DNA of 64,000 nt, taken from an uncultured Lentisphaerota bacterium (lineage in GTDB: Bacteria; Verrucomicrobiota; Lentisphaeria; Oligosphaerales; CAITYL01). Made by a program: the position numbers and the translations under genes. The stretch is taken from NCBI GenBank assembly GCA_903896595.1, contig CAITYL010000398.1, positions 7,084 to 71,083 on the forward strand, written 5' to 3'. A model generated the notes under the pieces. It searched no databases and had not been told where the DNA came from. It saw nothing but the letters and a program-made list of their open reading frames with translations. Numbering within the stretch: position 1 is the stretch's first letter; every line of letters begins with the position of its first letter. This document shows positions 31,686-38,711 of this stretch, in pieces.

Positions 31686-34600
31686 TTAATTGAACAGGAA
31701 ATTCAAATCATCTTCCGTGAGCTCGCCAGTGCGCGCGGGAACGCCCGACATGACCTCGTGAATCAGGGCGCGTTTGCGTTCCTGGAGCTGGAGGATTTTC
31801 TCCTCGATCGTGCCGCGCACCACCAGCTTGACCGACGTCACCTGGCGCAACTGCCCGATACGGTGGGCGCGGTCGGTGGCCTGGTCCTCGACCATCGGAT
31901 TCCACCACTGGTCATAGTGGATCACGGTATCGGCGCCGGTAAGATTGAGGCCCGTGCCACCCGCCTTGAGGCTGAGCAGGAACACCGGGACGCCACCCTC
32001 GCGATTGAAGCGGTCCACCCGTGCCTGACGGTCCTTGGTGGCGCCATCCAGATATTCGTAAGGGATGCCGTTCTTCTCCAACCATGGCACAATCAACTTG
32101 AGCAGCGAGGTAAACTGACTGAACAGAATCACCCGGTGCCCCGAGTCAATGGATTCGAGCAGGATTTCCTGCATCAGTTCCGTTTTTGACGATGGCGGGG
32201 TGGCGCCGACGCCGGCCAGCAGTTCCTGGGGAAGCAGGAGCGGGTGGCAGCACACCTGACGCAACCGGGTAAGCAGGGCCAGGACCTGGAAGCGCTTCTT
32301 GCGCCAGCCTTCGACCTTGGCCTGACGCACCAACTCACGCCCCGCGGTCAGGAACGAATTATAGAGCCGGCTCTGACTGTGGTCCATTTCACAATACAGC
32401 ACCTGTTCGATCTTGGGCGGCAGTTCCTGGCAGACATCCGCCTTGCGCCGGCGCAGGATGAAGGGGCGCACCCGCGCGGCCAAATGCCGCCGGGCCAGCG
32501 TCCCCGCCTCGCCGTCCGTGTCTTCATAGCGGTGGCTGAAATTCTGATGGCTGCTCAGAAACCCCGGCATCAGGAAGTCGAACAGTGACCAAACCTCCAG
32601 CAACCCGTTCTCAATCGGCGTGCCGGTGAGGATGATGCGGTGGGACGCCTGCAGTTCTTTGCAGGTTTGGGCGTTGGCCGTCTGGAAGTTCTTGATATGC
32701 TGCGCCTCGTCCAGGATGACCATGTCGAACGGCTGTTCGCGGTAGTGCCGGATGTCGCGTCGCAACAGCGCGTAAGAGGTGATGATCAGGTCCTGATGAG
32801 GCAGGTCGGCGAACGCCTCGGCGCGCTGACTGCCGTGCAGGATCATGCATTTCAGCTCGGGGGTGAATCGGTTCGCCTCGTTGCGCCAGTTTTCCAACAG
32901 GCTGGTCGGACAGACCACCAGCGAGGGCGTCTTAGCGGCGCCGCTGCGCTTGCGCCAGGCCAGCAACGCCAGCGCCTGCAGGGTCTTGCCCAGTCCCATC
33001 TCGTCGGCCAGGATGCCGTGGAACCCGCAGTCCTGCAACATGCCCAGCCAGGCCACGCCTTCCTTTTGGTACCCGCGCAGGATACGTTCCAATTCCGCGC
33101 TCAGCAGCCCCTCGGCCGGTTCGACCCGTTCCCGCAAGCGGCGGCACATGTTGATCCAGTTGGTCTGGAAGCCGGCGGCGGTCTCGCCCAGCAGTCCTTG
33201 CACGGCGGGGCCGGCAAACGTGGGGAAACGCCATTTGGTGCCGTCGCGCGACAAGGTGTCGGCGTCCAGCAACCGCAACAGGTCACGCACACTTTCGGGC
33301 ACGTGTACCAGCGTCCCGCCCCCCAAGATCATGGTGGAGCGGTGGTGGCGGATCGCCTCGAGAATGCTTTCCCAAGGCACGTCCTGGCCGTCCACGGTGG
33401 TCACCCGGCATTCCAATTCAAACCAGGAAATCGTTTCGGTGGCAGGCCGAATATGCGCTTCGGCGACCCCCGCCGAGGCACGCACGCGGAGAAACTCGGG
33501 GGTCATGAAACGGTGCCAAGACGCCGGCAGGCCTTCAAACCCGGAACGGCAGAAATCCCAAATTTTCTCGACGTCTTCCAGAAACCACTCATTGCCGGCG
33601 GCAGTCAGGCGCGGCAGAAACCCGGCTTGGCGCAACCGTTCTTCGGCGGCGGTTTCCGCCGCGGGATCCCGGCTGACCAAATGACGAAGCTGTCCAGAGC
33701 CGGACGCACCCGGATCGAAACGGAATCCGGCATAGCCAAACTCCAGACGCCCAGTCACGCCACCGTCACGCCAGTCAAAATAGGCCACCGGTTCGCAGGG
33801 AACGGGCCGCACCGCGATCACCTCGCCCGCCTGTGCCGCCACGTCACGCACCAGCACGCCGCAGGTGTCGCGCGCCCCCGCCGCCAGCAAACGTTCCAGT
33901 TCCATGGCCGGCATATCCTCGGCTTCACCCCGGAGAATAAAGCGAAAGCAGGCGCCTTCGACTTGGGCAGGCAGCCACCAAAAATGTTCATTCAACCCCA
34001 GCCACCAGCCCGTGCGCCCCGCCAGGATATGCGTTTCCGTTGCCGGCAGCACGCCGATGCCCGGCGCTTCCAACAGCGGACGTACCCGCACCATCTCCGG
34101 CGTCAGCCGGCTCACTTCCAAAACGGGCTGAATGCGTTCCGGATGCAATTCCAAGCGTTGCTCACCCAGAAAAAGGTCCGGAAAGCCGACCAAGCCGTGC
34201 AGAAATTCAGCCAGTTCCAAGACTCCCATCTCCAAGCCCCCCTTCACGGGGTTGGCATTGGCCGAGAGATAGCGCATGATCTGCCGTTCGCGCGGCGAGA
34301 AATCATTCCACACCATGCCGCCCGCGGCACTCCCATTCTCCACCAGGTGCCGGATATTGGCCGCCGCATAGGCACGTCCCTTGACGTGCAGGGTCACTTC
34401 AAACAAGGCCACGGACCAGCGCCGGTCGGCCACCAGGCCGTCCCGCAGGATGCGCAGGACCAAGTGGGGCGGTTGTTCCGCATGGGGAAATAAATGGCGC
34501 ACCGACGTGGCCTGAAACATGGCCGTGGTACTGTCCGGCGTCGCCGCCGCCCGCGCCAGCGGGCTCTCCTTGACGGCGGGTTGCGCGTCCGTCTTCAGGG

Positions 34601-34931
34601 TGCCCGCCGTGGCGGCACCGGTGGGCCACCAGCCCTCCCAGCCGCCCGGGGCGTCCGGATCTTGCTGAAAAAATGCCAGTAACGCCGCTACGGAATGGGC
34701 ACACCAGCCCCGGGGTCGGCCGCATGAACAGGACGGCGCCGCCGCTTCCTTGACAAAGGAAATCTGGCTACGCTCAAAACGTCCCCGCTCGTTGGCCACC
34801 ATGCCCTGCAAGATCTTGGCATTCGGTCGGCGCAACTCCAGCACGGCTCCGGTACGAAAGAGCTTGAGCCCCTCCTCATACACGGCCCGGCCGGAAAAAC
34901 CCGTGATCCAACGTTCAAATTCCGACTGCAT
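31686..34931 (-). CDS. SWIM zinc finger-SNF2 family helicase
   Basis: N-terminal SWIM CSCGRPRGWCAH. SNF2 motifs ADEMGLGKT, DEAQHIKN, LTGTPIEN. Helicase C FLLSLKAGGTGLNLTGADTVIHYDQWWNP ... DRAHRIGQ. Confidence 0.9.
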   Translation of the reverse strand: MQSEFERWITGFSGRAVYEEGLKLFRTGAVLELRRPNAKILQGMVANERGRFERSQISFVKEAAAPSCSCGRPRGWCAHSVAALLAFFQQDPDAPGGWEGWWPTGAATAGTLKTDAQPAVKESPLARAAATPDSTTAMFQATSVRHLFPHAEQPPHLVLRILRDGLVADRRWSVALFEVTLHVKGRAYAAANIRHLVENGSAAGGMVWNDFSPRERQIMRYLSANANPVKGGLEMGVLELAEFLHGLVGFPDLFLGEQRLELHPERIQPVLEVSRLTPEMVRVRPLLEAPGIGVLPATETHILAGRTGWWLGLNEHFWWLPAQVEGACFRFILRGEAEDMPAMELERLLAAGARDTCGVLVRDVAAQAGEVIAVRPVPCEPVAYFDWRDGGVTGRLEFGYAGFRFDPGASGSGQLRHLVSRDPAAETAAEERLRQAGFLPRLTAAGNEWFLEDVEKIWDFCRSGFEGLPASWHRFMTPEFLRVRASAGVAEAHIRPATETISWFELECRVTTVDGQDVPWESILEAIRHHRSTMILGGGTLVHVPESVRDLLRLLDADTLSRDGTKWRFPTFAGPAVQGLLGETAAGFQTNWINMCRRLRERVEPAEGLLSAELERILRGYQKEGVAWLGMLQDCGFHGILADEMGLGKTLQALALLAWRKRSGAAKTPSLVVCPTSLLENWRNEANRFTPELKCMILHGSQRAEAFADLPHQDLIITSYALLRRDIRHYREQPFDMVILDEAQHIKNFQTANAQTCKELQASHRIILTGTPIENGLLEVWSLFDFLMPGFLSSHQNFSHRYEDTDGEAGTLARRHLAARVRPFILRRRKADVCQELPPKIEQVLYCEMDHSQSRLYNSFLTAGRELVRQAKVEGWRKKRFQVLALLTRLRQVCCHPLLLPQELLAGVGATPPSSKTELMQEILLESIDSGHRVILFSQFTSLLKLIVPWLEKNGIPYEYLDGATKDRQARVDRFNREGGVPVFLLSLKAGGTGLNLTGADTVIHYDQWWNPMVEDQATDRAHRIGQLRQVTSVKLVVRGTIEEKILQLQERKRALIHEVMSGVPARTGELTEDDLNFLFN

Positions 34932-35000
34932 GAGTTCCCATTCACCGTAAAGTTGGATTCGTGCGTCTCGCGCGATACCCGCCCCACCCCCGCTCCGAAT

Positions 35001-35366
35001 CTACTTGACAACCGGTGGTGGAACCGCCTTCAACAAGCCACCCGTGGCGCCCACCGTGGGCCACCAGCCCTCCCAACCGTCCGGCGCCACCGGTTCCAGC
35101 TGGATAAACGCCAGCAAAGCCGCGATGGAGTGAACACACCAGCCTCGCGGCCGGCCGCACGAACAGGAGGGCGCGGCCGTTTCTTTCATAAACGAAATTT
35201 GGCTGCGCTCAAAACGACCGCCTTCGTTGGCTACTAGGCACTGCACAATCTTGGGATTGGGACGGCTTAGTTCCAGCACGGCTCCCGCGCGAAAAAGCTT
35301 CAGTCCCTCCTCGTACACGATGCGTCCGGAAAAACCCGTGATCCAGCGTTCAAATTCGGATTGCAT
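35001..35366 (-). CDS. stand-alone SWIM-domain protein, paralog of the SNF2 helicase N-terminus
   Basis: 121 aa from ATG 35366 (MQSEFERWITGFSGR...). Roughly 85% identical by eye to residues 1-105 of 31686..34931, including CSCGRPRGWCVH. Confidence 0.7.
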   Translation of the reverse strand: MQSEFERWITGFSGRIVYEEGLKLFRAGAVLELSRPNPKIVQCLVANEGGRFERSQISFMKETAAPSCSCGRPRGWCVHSIAALLAFIQLEPVAPDGWEGWWPTVGATGGLLKAVPPPVVK

Positions 35367-35401
35367 GTTTTTTCCTTCAGCGTTAGTCGGTCCGTCAGCC
35401 T

Positions 35402-36454
35402 TCACGTTGTCACCTCCGCCACCACAGCGGCGGCTTCCCGCAACACCCGCTCCGTATCATCCCATCCCAAGCAGGCATCCGTCACCGATAATCCCGCCTG
35501 GGGCTTGCCCCCGGCGGGAATTTCCTGACGCCCACCCAGCAAATGGCTCTCCAACATGAAACCGCGAATGACCTCCGCGCCACCACGAACTTGCGCCAGC
35601 ACGTCTTGCAACACCACAATCTGGCGTTGCGGATCTTTGCCGGAATTCGCGTGACTGCAGTCCACAATCAGATTGGGGTCCACCCCCATTTTACTCAACA
35701 GCTCCTGCGCCAAGACGATATGCTCTGAGGTGTAGTTGGGCCCCTCATACCCGCCGCGCAAGACCAGATGCCCAAAACGATTGCCACGCGTGCGGAAAGT
35801 GGCCACCCGCCCGTCACCGGTCACCCCAATGAAGGTGTGGGGCGAAGCCGCCGTGCGAATGGCGTCCACCGCCACCTTCATGCTGCCGTCCGTGGTGTTT
35901 TTGAACCCGATCGGCATGGACAACCCGCTGGCCATCTGCCGATGCGTCTGGCTCTCGGTGGTCCGGGCGCCAATGGCCGCCCACGACACTAAGTCCGTAA
36001 AGTACTGGGGCACCACCGGCTCCAAAATTTCCGCCCCGGCCGGAACGCCGAGTTCATTGATATCCAAGAGAATGCGCCTGGCCAGCCGCAGCCCGGCTTC
36101 GATGTCGCAGGTGTCATTCATGGCGGGGTCATAGATCAACCCCTTCCAGCCCAACGTGGTGCGCGGCTTCTCGAAATAAACCCGCATCACCACCAGCAAC
36201 TGCCGCTCCAATTCACGGGCCAGCCGGCGCAGCCGGGTGGCGTATTCAACCGCATCCTCGCGGCTGTGAATCGAGCAGGGCCCGACAATGGCGATCAGCC
36301 GGCGGTCGCGCTGGCTCAGAATATTCTCCAGCCCTGCCCGCGCCATCACCACCGTATCGGCCGCCCGCGCGGTCAACGGCAATTCGGTCTTGATCGCGTC
36401 TGGAGGCGTTAACGGCGCGAACCGCTCGATTCTTAAATTGTCTGTGCGTACCAT
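35402..36454 (-). CDS. aroG: class I (AroG/F/H-type) 3-deoxy-7-phosphoheptulonate (DAHP) synthase
   Basis: Collinear with E. coli AroG from memory: GPCSIH, VMRVYFEKPRTT.GWKGLI.DP, GARTTESQ.HR, GFKN.TDG, DCSHANS. Start set to ATG 36454 (MVRTDNLRIERF). Isozyme specificity unknown. Confidence 0.9.
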   Translation of the reverse strand: MVRTDNLRIERFAPLTPPDAIKTELPLTARAADTVVMARAGLENILSQRDRRLIAIVGPCSIHSREDAVEYATRLRRLARELERQLLVVMRVYFEKPRTTLGWKGLIYDPAMNDTCDIEAGLRLARRILLDINELGVPAGAEILEPVVPQYFTDLVSWAAIGARTTESQTHRQMASGLSMPIGFKNTTDGSMKVAVDAIRTAASPHTFIGVTGDGRVATFRTRGNRFGHLVLRGGYEGPNYTSEHIVLAQELLSKMGVDPNLIVDCSHANSGKDPQRQIVVLQDVLAQVRGGAEVIRGFMLESHLLGGRQEIPAGGKPQAGLSVTDACLGWDDTERVLREAAAVVAEVTT

Positions 36455-36512
36455 CCGTGATCTTTCTTCCCCAACCCGACCACAACTCAAACCGTGAAAT
36501 TAACCGCCGCCC

Positions 36513-36584
36513 AACCCCTCAACCCCTCAACCCCTCAACCCCTCAACCCCTCAACCCCTCAACCCCTCAACCCCTCAACCCCTA
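36513..36584. repeat. 8-nt tandem repeat (aacccctc)x8 plus one degenerate unit; G-rich (gaggggtt)n on the minus strand
   Basis: Eight perfect units at 36513-36576 and aaccccta at 36577-36584. Lies 5 nt after the stop of 36589..37347 and 59 nt upstream of the DAHP synthase ATG. Confidence 0.95.
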
Positions 36585-36588
36585 CCCC

Positions 36589-37347
36589 TCAGAACGACAC
36601 CTTCACATCCCCCGTCATGCGGATCGGCGGCGGAATCAGCTTGAGCCCGGCCGGCGTCGCCCAGTCCCGCTCCCAGCTTCGCAGCAACAACGGCCCGGTC
36701 GGCGGCCCCCAAGGGTTGAGATCCACCAGCAACAGACGCTTGTCCGAGGTCAGATAGACATCGGCCACCAAGGTGTCCGCCGGCCACCCGGACGCCAGGC
36801 GCGCGGCAAACTCCAAGCCGCGCTCCCAAATCTCTCCAGTCCGCCCCGCCAGTCGGCGAAAATGACGTTCCAGGCAGTACTGGCTCATTGCGGCCAATTG
36901 CCGCCGGTGAATAAACAGCCGAAATTCGCGGGCCCGGTCCATGCGCCGAAAAGGGCGCACCACCAACCGGGTGGAATGCCCCTCACTCAACGCCGTCCGC
37001 ACCTGTGGACTGGTTGCCAGCAACCGCCAAGCGGTGGAGGCGGTAAAAATCCCGCGTCGCGCCTGGTACAGCGGACTGTCGGTCGGGGCGCACACATCCG
37101 CGTTCACCACACAGGCCCCGGTGAAGGCGCCCATCCCCTGTCGCAACGCCTCCACTCCCGTTCGCGCCGCGGCCGAAACGTCGTCTCCAGCCAGCAACGC
37201 CTGAATGGTGTCTGCTGACAGGGGAATGAAAACGCTGGGAAAGGTCACGTTCCCCAACGAGGCATACCACGATGAAATAGGAAAAAAATGCGGTTCCACG
37301 CTAATGCCACCCACCCAACAATCCAAAAAACCGACTCGCATGCACAA
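36589..37347 (-). CDS. CDC123/D123-like ATP-grasp family protein
   Basis: ISSWYASLGNVTFPSVFIPL, REFRLFIHRRQLAAMSQYC and VADVYLTSDKRLLLVDLNPWGPPTGPLLLRSWERDW parallel the eukaryotic Cdc123 blocks (SWY..f, EWRCFV...L.aISQ, DVYi...kv.LIDfNPf...TDpLLFsW.EL) as I recall them. Confidence 0.6.
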   Translation of the reverse strand: MCMRVGFLDCWVGGISVEPHFFPISSWYASLGNVTFPSVFIPLSADTIQALLAGDDVSAAARTGVEALRQGMGAFTGACVVNADVCAPTDSPLYQARRGIFTASTAWRLLATSPQVRTALSEGHSTRLVVRPFRRMDRAREFRLFIHRRQLAAMSQYCLERHFRRLAGRTGEIWERGLEFAARLASGWPADTLVADVYLTSDKRLLLVDLNPWGPPTGPLLLRSWERDWATPAGLKLIPPPIRMTGDVKVSF

Positions 37348-37487
37348 ACCAGGACAACCCGGTAAAAATCAGACCCTTACCATACTCCATTGATTATGTG
37401 TTTACCAGTGGCACTTGCCTTTTTCATGGACCGTGGCATGGTTACGCGCTGCCAGTGCCAAACCTACACGGCAGTTTTCACCCCCCT

Positions 37488-37573
37488 GCCCGGGTGGCGG
37501 AATGGCAGACGCTACGGACTTAAAATCCGTTGATCGCAAGGTCGTGCGGGTTCGACTCCCGCCCCGGGCACCA
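37488..37573 (+). tRNA. tRNA-Leu (anticodon UAA)
   Basis: Acceptor gcccggg/cccgggc. Anticodon stem-loop acgga-cttaaaa-tccgt (UAA). Long variable arm. T arm gcggg-ttcgact-cccgc. Encoded CCA at 37571-37573. Confidence 0.9.
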
Positions 37574-37918
37574 GCTTAACATACACAAAACAAGCATATT
37601 AGGGCACAAGAATCCGGCCATTCCGCTTTTTGGCAACTGGACTATTTGGGGGTATTTTTAGGTATGTGTAGGTAAAATAGAGGGTACATAAAGGGTACAA
37701 CCTTGAAAACACCTCAGCGGTGAACTGTATTTTAAGCTCAATGGACAGCGCCCTGGCATGCCATTGTAGCCGATTGATCTCGGGCATGGCGCTACAATGG
37801 CCAGTACAACAACCGACTGCCGCTGCCCCCAGTCTCTTGACGGCCAAACCCTCGGCGCTATGCTAGACCCGCCCGGCCGTTGTTCATGTAGCCGCGCCGG
37901 CACCGGGGCTCACAACAA

Positions 37919-38170
37919 GTGCCCATAATCGTTAAAATTGTCTCCGGCGGTCTGATCGGCGCCAACTGGGGTTGGCTTGATGCCGCCACGCACTGCCGTC
38001 TCCCCCAGGGCGGCCGGTGCCGCCCAAATTACCGGCTAACTGGGAACGACACTATCCCCGCCAGATACGAGCCACGGGAGGCACCATCCAAGGACTCCCC
38101 ACCCCACCCCGGCTCAAACGTGGTGGACTCGGACGCGACCGTCATCCTTCGGCACGGCGGACGCCTTCCA
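37919..38170 (+). pseudogene. eroded fragment of a SLOG/putative molybdenum-carrier (YpsA-like) gene
   Basis: KIVSGGLIGANWGWLDAA ... GGRCRP ... IPARY ... NVVDSDATVIL follows the family order (SGGQTGaDRaaLDaA, GGWCPkGR, iP.rY, NV.DSDgTLi), but key residues are replaced and the C-terminal half is missing. Confidence 0.4.
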
Positions 38171-38456
38171 GCTCAGCCGTGCCTGGGGCCAGGGCCTCCT
38201 CCCCGTCGCCGCCGCCTCCGTGCGAACTCCGCAAACGTGGTTCCGCGATGGCTGGGACGGACTCAGTGCCGAAGGCTTCACCGCCGACGGCCGCCTGCTG
38301 CTCTCGAATCTGCGCGCCGCGCCAACCACCTTTACCCTGACCGCCGCCGCGCCCGCTTGGGAAATCCAGGCGGTGGACGGCACTTCCCGCCTCACTGCCG
38401 CCCACCAACTCACCCTCAACCCCTGTGAACTGGCACTGGCCAAGGAATTAGTCTGA
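38163..38456 (+). pseudogene. possible C-terminal remnant of a glycoside hydrolase beta-sandwich
   Basis: The open frame reads ...WFRDGWDGLSAEGFTADGRLLLSNLRAAPTTFTLTAAAPAWEIQAVDG ... LTLNPCELALAKEL, like the C-terminal ends of the hydrolases in this window. No credible N-terminus. Confidence 0.25.
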
Positions 38457-38516
38457 CTTGTCCGACTGGTCTGACTTGTCCGACAACCCCCAACCACTCA
38501 CCAGCGTTCAAATCAC

Positions 38517-38711
38517 TTGGAGCTTCCCATGCCCCCTGACACCACCCCCCAGCAACCGCGCCGTACCTTGGCAAAACTCGCCCGCCAAGAACCGGTGACC
38601 ATCCTCGTGGTTGGCGACTCCAACAGCGTCGTCGGCCAACTCGCCTTCTTCCGTGAACTCGCCCCCCATTTCAACGTCCCCAAATACTTCTGCTGGGAAG
38701 AAGTGGAATAA
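38517..38711 (+). pseudogene. N-terminal fragment of an SGNH hydrolase
   Basis: The 64-aa ORF contains [11 protein letters not shown] (block I GDS) and then terminates. Blocks III and V are absent. Confidence 0.35.

Follow-up and report, generated by a model that had tools for sequence, protein, structure and literature searches.

The DNA examined here, a window of 64,000 nucleotides (nt) on contig CAITYL010000398.1 of an uncultured Lentisphaerota bacterium, carries on its minus strand a gene that encodes an ATP-grasp protein of the D123/Cdc123 branch with a Cdc123 fold (Table 1). The original prediction had described a product of 252 amino acids (aa) with an SSWY motif and two further blocks of Cdc123; the open reading frame (ORF) is indeed uninterrupted and all the quoted blocks are present, including REFRLFIHRRQLAAMSQ at aa 140-156 and DVYLTSDKRLLLVDLNPWGPPTGPLLLRSWE at aa 196-226. 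The proposed assignment to the Cdc123/D123-like ATP-grasp proteins is well supported, because the profile match is significant and the predicted fold is that of an ATP-grasp protein. In the profile search, the product matched Pfam family D123 (PF07065) over aa 121-225 with 65.4 bits, well above the gathering cutoff of 24 (E = 6.2e-18); the match to Pfam R2K_2 was sub-threshold, and searches of NCBIfam, PADLOC and PHROGs gave no match. The only significant matches in a sequence search of the PDB were human and S. pombe Cdc123, and a family profile of 29 sequences matched human Cdc123 with E = 1.2e-18, widening the match to aa ~48-211. An AlphaFold2 model built on 120 homologues was obtained with high confidence (pLDDT, predicted local distance difference test, 92.5; predicted template modelling score, pTM, 0.85), the C-terminal tail of the subfamily being of lower confidence. 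The comparison of this model with known structures agreed with the sequence-based assignment: the ten best Foldseek matches in the PDB are all Cdc123 (E of 2e-14 to 7e-13; query template modelling scores, TMq, of 0.66-0.73), followed by a second tier of D-Ala-D-Ala ligases (Ddl), RimK, LysX and ArgX (E of ~1e-5 to 1e-4; TM of ~0.4).

Table 1. Coordinates in the window of the D123 gene, its motifs and the adjoining features
Feature	Position	Strand	Details
D123/Cdc123-family ORF	36589..37347	-	Maximal frame of 252 aa/252 codons from TTG 37347, no interruption; TGA stop 36589-36591
Alternative start candidates of D123	ATG 37341, GTG 37314, GTG 37299	-	
N-terminal SSWY motif, aa 25-28	37264..37275	-	W27 and Y28 invariant in subfamily; aligned with human Cdc123 'FSAWY'
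RAGNYA strand 2 and phosphate loop CVVNADVCAPTD, aa 79-90	37078..37113	-	N82 = human K104 position; T89 = human R111 position
Hinge and first kinase-like strand RPFRRMDRAREFR, aa 131-143	36919..36957	-	R134, R135, ExR (E141, R143)
DVYLTSDKRLLLVDLN, aa 196-211	36715..36762	-	D196 = human D233; D209-x-N211 = human D246xN248
C-terminal tail PPIRMTGDVKVSF-COOH, aa 240-252	36592..36630	-	Subfamily-specific
Terminator-like hairpin followed by T-run	37331-37352	-	Covers TTG and ATG start candidates of D123
Tandem repeat (GGGGTTGA)x10	36512..36591	-	Perfect; from the D123 TGA stop, most of the 134-nt gap to the aroG ATG
DAHP synthase (aroG-type)	35402-36490	-	Likely ATG 36454; Pfam DAHP_synth_1 E = 1.6e-75; downstream of D123
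tRNA-Leu(taa)	37488-37573	+	Divergent, ~140 nt upstream of D123
ORF with match to cpYpsA	37919-38428	+	169 aa
SWIM-like ORF	35001-35405	-	134 aa; directly upstream of the SNF2 helicase gene
SNF2 helicase	31686-34931	-	
DNA repeat of the SWIM duplication	34979-35278 and 34544-34843		

The D123 ORF is a functional gene under purifying selection and of native composition. The ratio of nonsynonymous to synonymous substitution rates (dN/dS) is 0.16 against a 76%-identical orthologue at the related locus L001 (228 codons compared), and both the GC content and that of third codon positions (GC3) agree with those of the neighbouring genes. Given the Pfam E value, this dN/dS and the extensive homology described below, the gene is far beyond what chance could produce. 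Its true start is more likely one of the two GTG codons (236-241 aa) than the TTG that opens the maximal frame, because residues 1-20 are unconserved in the family and disordered in the predicted model and because a terminator-like hairpin lies over the candidates TTG and ATG; the minus strand showed no gene that this hairpin would terminate. The hairpin was the sole find of a promoter and terminator scan, which gave no sigma-70-like site on the coding strand of D123, and an Rfam scan of positions 35300-38600 returned the tRNA alone, with no leader and no riboswitch.

A discrete and vertically inherited subfamily

A word-indexed search yielded at least 515 homologue clusters at 90% identity. 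The best 120 of these, on which the alignment is based, are nearly all 230-257 aa long with a PF07065 match (a 372-aa entry was left out of the alignment), and those that are named belong to Lentisphaeria or Victivallales. When 1.84 billion representatives were searched exhaustively with a hidden Markov model (HMM), 2981 D123-like clusters reached E <= 1e-3 but only 24 reached E <= 1e-30, and on the subfamily profile the full-length members score at least 185 bits, the next proteins reaching ~115 bits or less. Because of this small core of high-scoring clusters and of the gap in score, the proteins can be delimited as a discrete subfamily, which is compact (227-257 aa, with neither N- nor C-terminal extensions), single-domain and almost confined to Lentisphaeria/Victivallales. 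When one genome per species of GTDB was scanned, 83 stretches were confirmed, the best 80 of which were kept as distinct loci. Labels beginning with Lentisphaer or Victivall are carried by 74 of the 80; the set includes the cultured Victivallis vadensis DSM 14823, Lentisphaera marina, a metagenome-assembled genome assigned to L. araneosa and the complete genome of strain zth2.

Each of the 80 loci is on a contig of its own, in agreement with one copy per genome, and 19 columns are invariant across the 120 homologues, over a divergence to roughly 40-45% identity. The subfamily is inherited vertically across Lentisphaeria. Bacterial members had been expected to be rare, which is true in the sense that they are phylogenetically restricted but not in number, as the counts of clusters and confirmed stretches attest. 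They had also been called essentially uncharacterised, and this description stands, no publication on bacterial D123 later than Burroughs et al. 2015 having been found.

The nucleotide site and the subfamily signatures

The R2K clade of Burroughs et al. 2015 is marked by a strand-2 Lys (human K104), a Lys or Arg in the following loop, ExR, an Asp (D233) and DxN (D246/N248), and the main text of that study calls the strand-2 Lys 'absolutely conserved'. In human Cdc123, R111 touches the beta and gamma phosphates of ATP, and A109 lies 3.7 A from ATP (PMC12860950). The profile-to-PDB alignment pairs 'GacfvsaDvcaPtDs' of the family with 'GsvfpKlnwsaPRDa' of human Cdc123 and 'vvpKlnwstPKDa' of S. 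pombe Cdc123, and DSSP assigns a strand, residues 79-83 of the D123 model, to the segment equivalent to that of human K104. Position 82, which corresponds to K104, is occupied by G, S, F, A, H, T, N or C and in none of the 120 sequences by K or R (Asn in the window), and position 89, corresponding to R111, is Thr in 111 of the 120, the window protein included. E141, R143, D196, D209 and N211 are each present in 120 of 120 (the window reads E141-F-R143 and D209-L-N211), and the phosphate loop A-P-x-D is likewise maintained (A87 in 108, P88 in 119 and D90 in all 120). As judged from the alignment, the subfamily lacks both basic residues of the R2K clade while it retains ExR, Asp and DxN; in its missing strand-2 Lys it differs from the R2K.1 proteins described in 2015. 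The absence of these two signature residues had escaped the original prediction.

A MAFFT alignment with the 24 nearest outgroups, almost all of them metagenomic and of both the short bacterial type and the long eukaryote type, showed how the site differs from that of the surrounding family. In all 24, the residue aligned with human K104 is K or R, and most have S-P-K-D; at the position of human R111, Thr or Ser is also found in some K104-containing eukaryote-type homologues. D84, invariant in the subfamily, is a gain relative to the outgroups. In the hinge, the subfamily reads R-P-F-R-R-M versus R-[KEQ]-W-x-[DE]-[IML] in the outgroups, an acid-to-Arg switch in which the subfamily-specific R134 (120/120) and R135 (114/120) take the place of x-[D/E]. 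The C-terminal tail, P-P-x-x-[MI]-x-G-D-V-x-V-S-F-COOH (GDVxVSF), with P241 and G246 invariant and S251 and F252 nearly so, occurs in none of the 24 sampled outgroups. Across the 120 sequences, loop 84-104 offers no fixed basic residue as a replacement, and 111 of them have K or R at one or more of positions 91-100. The divergent member P0133 combines the RR hinge with a retained strand-2 Lys ('SIKFDY') and may be an evolutionary intermediate.

The nearest D123 proteins outside the subfamily (Brevibacillus WP_390236986.1, which is P0167, and metagenomic proteins within P0144-P0207) are 240-300 aa long, consist of a single D123 domain and share the fold-defining motifs; they retain F-[VI]-[KR]-L and mostly S-P-K-D, have the hinge R-[KEQ]-W-x-[DE], lack GDVxVSF and fall below the score gap that separates the subfamily. 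Eukaryotic Cdc123 (human, S. pombe and S. cerevisiae; PDB 8phd and 4zgn-4zgq), the best structural match (E of ~1e-14), is collinear with D123 over its full length, from the xSxWY helix through RAGNYA to the kinase-like domain, and shares ExR, Asp, DxN and the A-P-x-D loop. Compared with Cdc123, the subfamily is ~100 residues shorter, without low-complexity inserts, lacks equivalents of K104 and R111, and has the RPFRRM hinge and the GDVxVSF C-terminus. The RimK, LysX, ArgX and Ddl ligases share with D123 the superfamily fold and the Mg2+-binding D/E...ExN logic but, unlike D123, possess both phosphate-binding lysines and the ssxGbGl loop.

Part of this was already known. The bacterial CDC123/R2K.1 proteins of Burroughs, Zhang & Aravind 2015 belong to the same Pfam family, and the subfamily was sampled there through L. 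araneosa, whose orthologue (gi 494490064) was used to seed a search and appears, with 'VVGLDSCMPTDS', in the supplementary alignment; in the main text we found no mention of its deviation at the strand-2 Lys. What appears to be new relative to the literature is the combination of the missing lysines that define the clade, the putatively compensating arginines of the hinge, and the C-terminal tail.

A further basic residue varies within the subfamily. K115, in the 'SxKVR' helix (window 37003-37005), is Lys in 111 of the 120 sequences and Arg in four more, and Arg also in most outgroups; aa 115 of the window protein, and of its nearest relatives, is Gln, a clade-specific loss among the few basic residues that are still conserved.

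Gene order and possible function

ORFs in the 80 GTDB loci and the window were ranked by conservation across loci, clustered by BLASTP and annotated through Pfam searches with cluster representatives, alongside a tblastn census; twelve extra loci (L081-L092) come from the contigs that carry the most divergent representatives of the clusters. Genes found repeatedly near D123 in the 82 loci are def, DUF1189, gltX, OEP, map, ffh, acs, aroG, RsmI-like, CorA and RlmN, and three arrangements, each specific to a clade, can be distinguished. Arrangement A, (OEP)-(gltX)-def-DUF1189-like-D123, includes the membrane protein in 60, def in 52, OEP in 40 and GluRS in 25 of the 82 loci. The DUF1189-like gene stands immediately 5' of D123 in 55-60 of the 82, and the junctions of def with the DUF1189-like gene (cl1) and of cl1 with D123 mostly measure -4 to +4 nt. 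Arrangement B, map-ffh-D123-(AMP-binding ligase), is found in six Lentisphaerales-type loci. Arrangement C, D123-(acs)-aroG, is that of the window and of L001, L002, L003 and L007; L004 and L005 have acs only. Close relatives thus share the adjacency to aroG that the original prediction described. The adjacency of D123 and acs extends to eight loci from at least two clades, with gaps of ~10 nt in L003, L023 and L036. Between ffh and D123 the genes overlap in L081 and L084, and are separated by 2-3 nt in L023 and L036 and by 111-145 nt in L056-L058.

The twelve extra loci contain housekeeping genes only. At L081 (GC 31%), where the D123 gene (P0133, L081:8001-8675) lies between ffh and rseP, which encodes an RseP-type M50/PDZ site-2 protease, both junctions overlap; L084 reads map-ffh-D123-pdxJ-glmM with a 1-nt overlap. 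DUF1189-D123 recurs in L085, L088 and L090, D123 follows pheS-pheT-x in L092, and it is followed by acs in L086 and by polyprenyl synthase-PTPS-MurJ in L082. In an outgroup-rooted neighbour-joining tree without support values, L081, L084 and the Lentisphaerales clade are successive basal branches, all of them ffh-linked, and the clade of the window and a single large DUF1189/def clade are derived. The vertical inheritance throughout Lentisphaeria and the ffh/map and def/DUF1189 operon contexts also appear to be new to the literature.

The DUF1189-like protein (L009-L077, e.g., L024:9056-10000), translationally coupled to D123 and found among the sampled loci mainly in Victivallales-type genomes, begins with one transmembrane helix, continues with a beta-rich domain of ~140 aa outside the cytoplasm and ends with three to four transmembrane helices. 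Its match to Pfam DUF1189 is sub-threshold, and a homologue search gave 23 Victivallis-type proteins. Foldseek found nothing significant in the PDB for its AlphaFold2 model (pLDDT 83.6), the best match being LolC (E = 8e-3, TM 0.18). A gene of 362 aa at L084:9703-10791 on the minus strand, ~3.4 kb from D123, has a weak match to Pfam Tubulin and could encode a divergent FtsZ/tubulin-like protein.

We consider it somewhat probable that D123 of the Lentisphaeria works in the cytoplasm as a housekeeping factor, one that probably depends on a nucleotide and possibly has a link to protein biogenesis. The protein would still bind nucleotide-Mg2+ through the retained C-terminal half-site (E141-x-R143, D196 and D209-x-N211), with rewired phosphate contacts; candidates to replace the lost basic residues are R134/R135 and loop 91-100, which is generally basic. 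Its target would be a protein, on which it would work either as a nucleotide-gated chaperone of assembly, in the style of Cdc123 and eIF2-gamma, or as a protein/peptide ligase. Because D123 recurs as the last, often overlapping gene of the map-ffh-D123 and def-DUF1189-D123 operons, we infer that its client may belong to the co-translational processing or targeting of proteins or to the biogenesis of membrane proteins; in the clade of the window, D123 would have moved out of those operons to its present place between tRNA-Leu and aroG.

A link to the translation and protein-biogenesis apparatus, here by genomic association, is something the subfamily has in common with Cdc123. Cdc123 is essential in eukaryotes, where it binds domain III of eIF2-gamma as well as the C-terminal extension of this subunit and promotes the assembly of alpha with gamma; the role of its ATP-grasp site is debated, and an ATPase activity was reportedly first described in 2025. 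Bacteria, to our knowledge, have no eIF2, and because the host is devoid of eIF2-gamma, the client of bacterial D123 must differ from that of Cdc123. For a ligase, precedent is offered by ATP-grasp proteins that modify protein C-termini, RimK acting on S6 and LysX on LysW; for D123, neither a carrier protein nor a substrate of the S6 type was in evidence. The extension of eIF2-gamma that Cdc123 requires is itself eukaryote-specific (PMC6412873).

Several observations weigh against a nucleotide-dependent factor of protein biogenesis. Because the strand-2 Lys is lost, the case for nucleotide binding has to be made from the acidic residues that are kept, and for ATP binding or ATPase activity the sequence signal is mixed, the acidic ligands being retained and the basic ones gone. 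Loss of this Lys normally cripples ATP-grasp catalysis. Housekeeping gene order can persist within a phylum without functional coupling, and the DUF1189/def context has to be counted as one event because it is that of one monophyletic clade in the neighbour-joining tree, which carries no support values. The downstream genes acs, aroG, PTPS, ispH and pdxJ are metabolic, and a small-molecule role fits them equally well. Within the 64-kb window, no DUF1189, def, gltX, map, ffh, skp, OEP or acs gene was found.

Of the other explanations, the one that survives best, although we judge it unlikely, is that D123 is a pseudoenzyme: with the two basic residues, ATP binding or catalysis would have gone too, and the Cdc123 fold would serve purely for binding or as a scaffold. 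The position equivalent to K104 is never basic, that of R111 is Thr, loop 84-104 provides no invariant basic replacement, and eukaryotic Cdc123 itself has no known ligase product (PMC8844851). Unused residues normally drift, however, and D196, D209, N211, E141 and R143 have all stayed fixed and the A-P-x-D loop has been kept; moreover, the hinge has acquired a new invariant Arg, R134, and a change at the R111 position alone is tolerated, as the Thr or Ser of K104-containing eukaryote-type homologues indicates.

It is distinctly unlikely, in our estimate, that D123 is a small-molecule ATP-grasp ligase that works with the downstream AMP-binding (acyl-CoA-ligase-like) enzyme and/or with genes of aromatic or cofactor biosynthesis. 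Such a role would suit most ATP-grasp enzymes, which form small-molecule amide bonds (as do the matched Ddl and LysX), the D123-acs pairs in eight loci of at least two clades, the D123-(acs)-aroG order in the clade of the window, and the PTPS, polyprenyl synthase, ispH or pdxJ genes found downstream in other lineages; pairs of linked ligases have been described elsewhere as a theme (PMC4431377). The downstream partners nevertheless vary by clade and share no common pathway, the deepest and most persistent linkage is upstream, to ffh/map, and the closest structures are all Cdc123, a protein-binding factor, with TM of ~0.7 against ~0.4 for Ddl and LysX.

Returning to the protein-biogenesis factor, a far bolder form of this proposal, to us a long shot, would make Lentisphaeria D123 the prokaryotic functional counterpart of Cdc123, and possibly kin to its ancestor: a nucleotide-gated factor that assembles or matures a GTPase-containing machine of co-translational biogenesis (such as Ffh of the signal recognition particle, or an EF-Tu-like protein), encoded ancestrally in map-ffh-D123. 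The origin of Cdc123 has been ascribed, reportedly, to bacterial conflict systems. Were the bolder proposal true, the link between Cdc123 and translation would be older than eukaryotes and would not stem from a domesticated toxin, and the lysine-less site would represent a previously unseen mode in which the ATP-grasp fold holds a nucleotide.

The original prediction had also hinted at a link to conflict systems. The neighbourhood comparison did not bear out this link, which does not apply to the subfamily: surroundings are of the housekeeping type in ~90 loci, among which no type VI secretion system (T6SS) or toxin gene appeared, and no VgrG, Hcp, PAAR, SUKH, toxin or defence gene recurs in the 82. 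Although Burroughs et al. 2015 placed bacterial CDC123 in T6SS polymorphic-toxin loci or among Legionella-type effectors, and although an ORF that partially matches cpYpsA SLOG lies ~570 nt upstream of D123 on the other strand, it is highly improbable that D123 is delivered by a T6SS, is auxiliary to a toxin or is secreted as an effector against eukaryotic hosts, as the gene is single-copy, tracks the phylum and is under strong purifying selection with native composition, PADLOC and PHROG searches are blank, the SLOG ORF is not conserved beside it, and the compact protein has neither terminal extensions nor a secretion signal. Compared with the T6SS-linked proteins, the subfamily is vertical, phylum-wide and in housekeeping operons, without T6SS, SUKH or PAAR context; compared with the Legionella effectors, with their extended N- and C-termini and features of type IV secretion signals, it is short and ends in GDVxVSF.

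The subfamily represents a second, housekeeping-type lineage of bacterial Cdc123 proteins, small, single-domain and present in the culturable Victivallis vadensis and Lentisphaera spp. Its operons with SRP54, methionine aminopeptidase and peptide deformylase offer a tractable route to the role of a Cdc123 fold without eIF2, and the loss of basic residues next to invariant acidic ligands is a natural experiment in rebuilding an ATP-grasp nucleotide site. The family assignment itself is unsurprising; the value of the subfamily lies in being a tractable entry to the biochemistry and origin of Cdc123, and the gene of the window can be annotated confidently as D123, with caution against a toxin or defence label.

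Other features of the window

The position of D123 on the same strand as aroG and the SWIM-like and SNF2 genes, with tRNA-Leu adjacent, was as first described. The neighbours in the window are aroG, SNF2, TatD, a hydrolase, a glycoside hydrolase, LacI and an AAA ATPase. Among 20 related loci scanned for tRNAs, tRNA-Leu adjoins D123 solely in L001, the closest relative, and its interpretation as an integration hotspot or island signal was ruled out by the native composition and vertical inheritance of the gene.

The ORF beyond the tRNA matches, with its first 80 residues, the N-terminal half of Pfam cpYpsA (E = 3e-11, profile positions 1-73 of 145), a circularly permuted, nucleotide-binding YpsA SLOG domain; the remainder is Pro/Arg-rich, and the ORF may be frameshifted or truncated.

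Between D123 and aroG lies the repeat tract (GGGGUUGA)10, a G-rich 8-mer on the coding strand of both genes. The array fits the canonical G-quadruplex motif in DNA and in any read-through RNA, where none would be expected by chance. It is absent from all 80 related loci, which rules it out as part of a conserved system.

Upstream of the SNF2 helicase gene, the 134-aa ORF duplicates the N-terminal 121 aa of the helicase (CxC...CxH, SWIM-like) with 79% identity in protein and 74% in DNA. This is a tandem partial gene duplication, the copy being either a free-standing SWIM module or a remnant.

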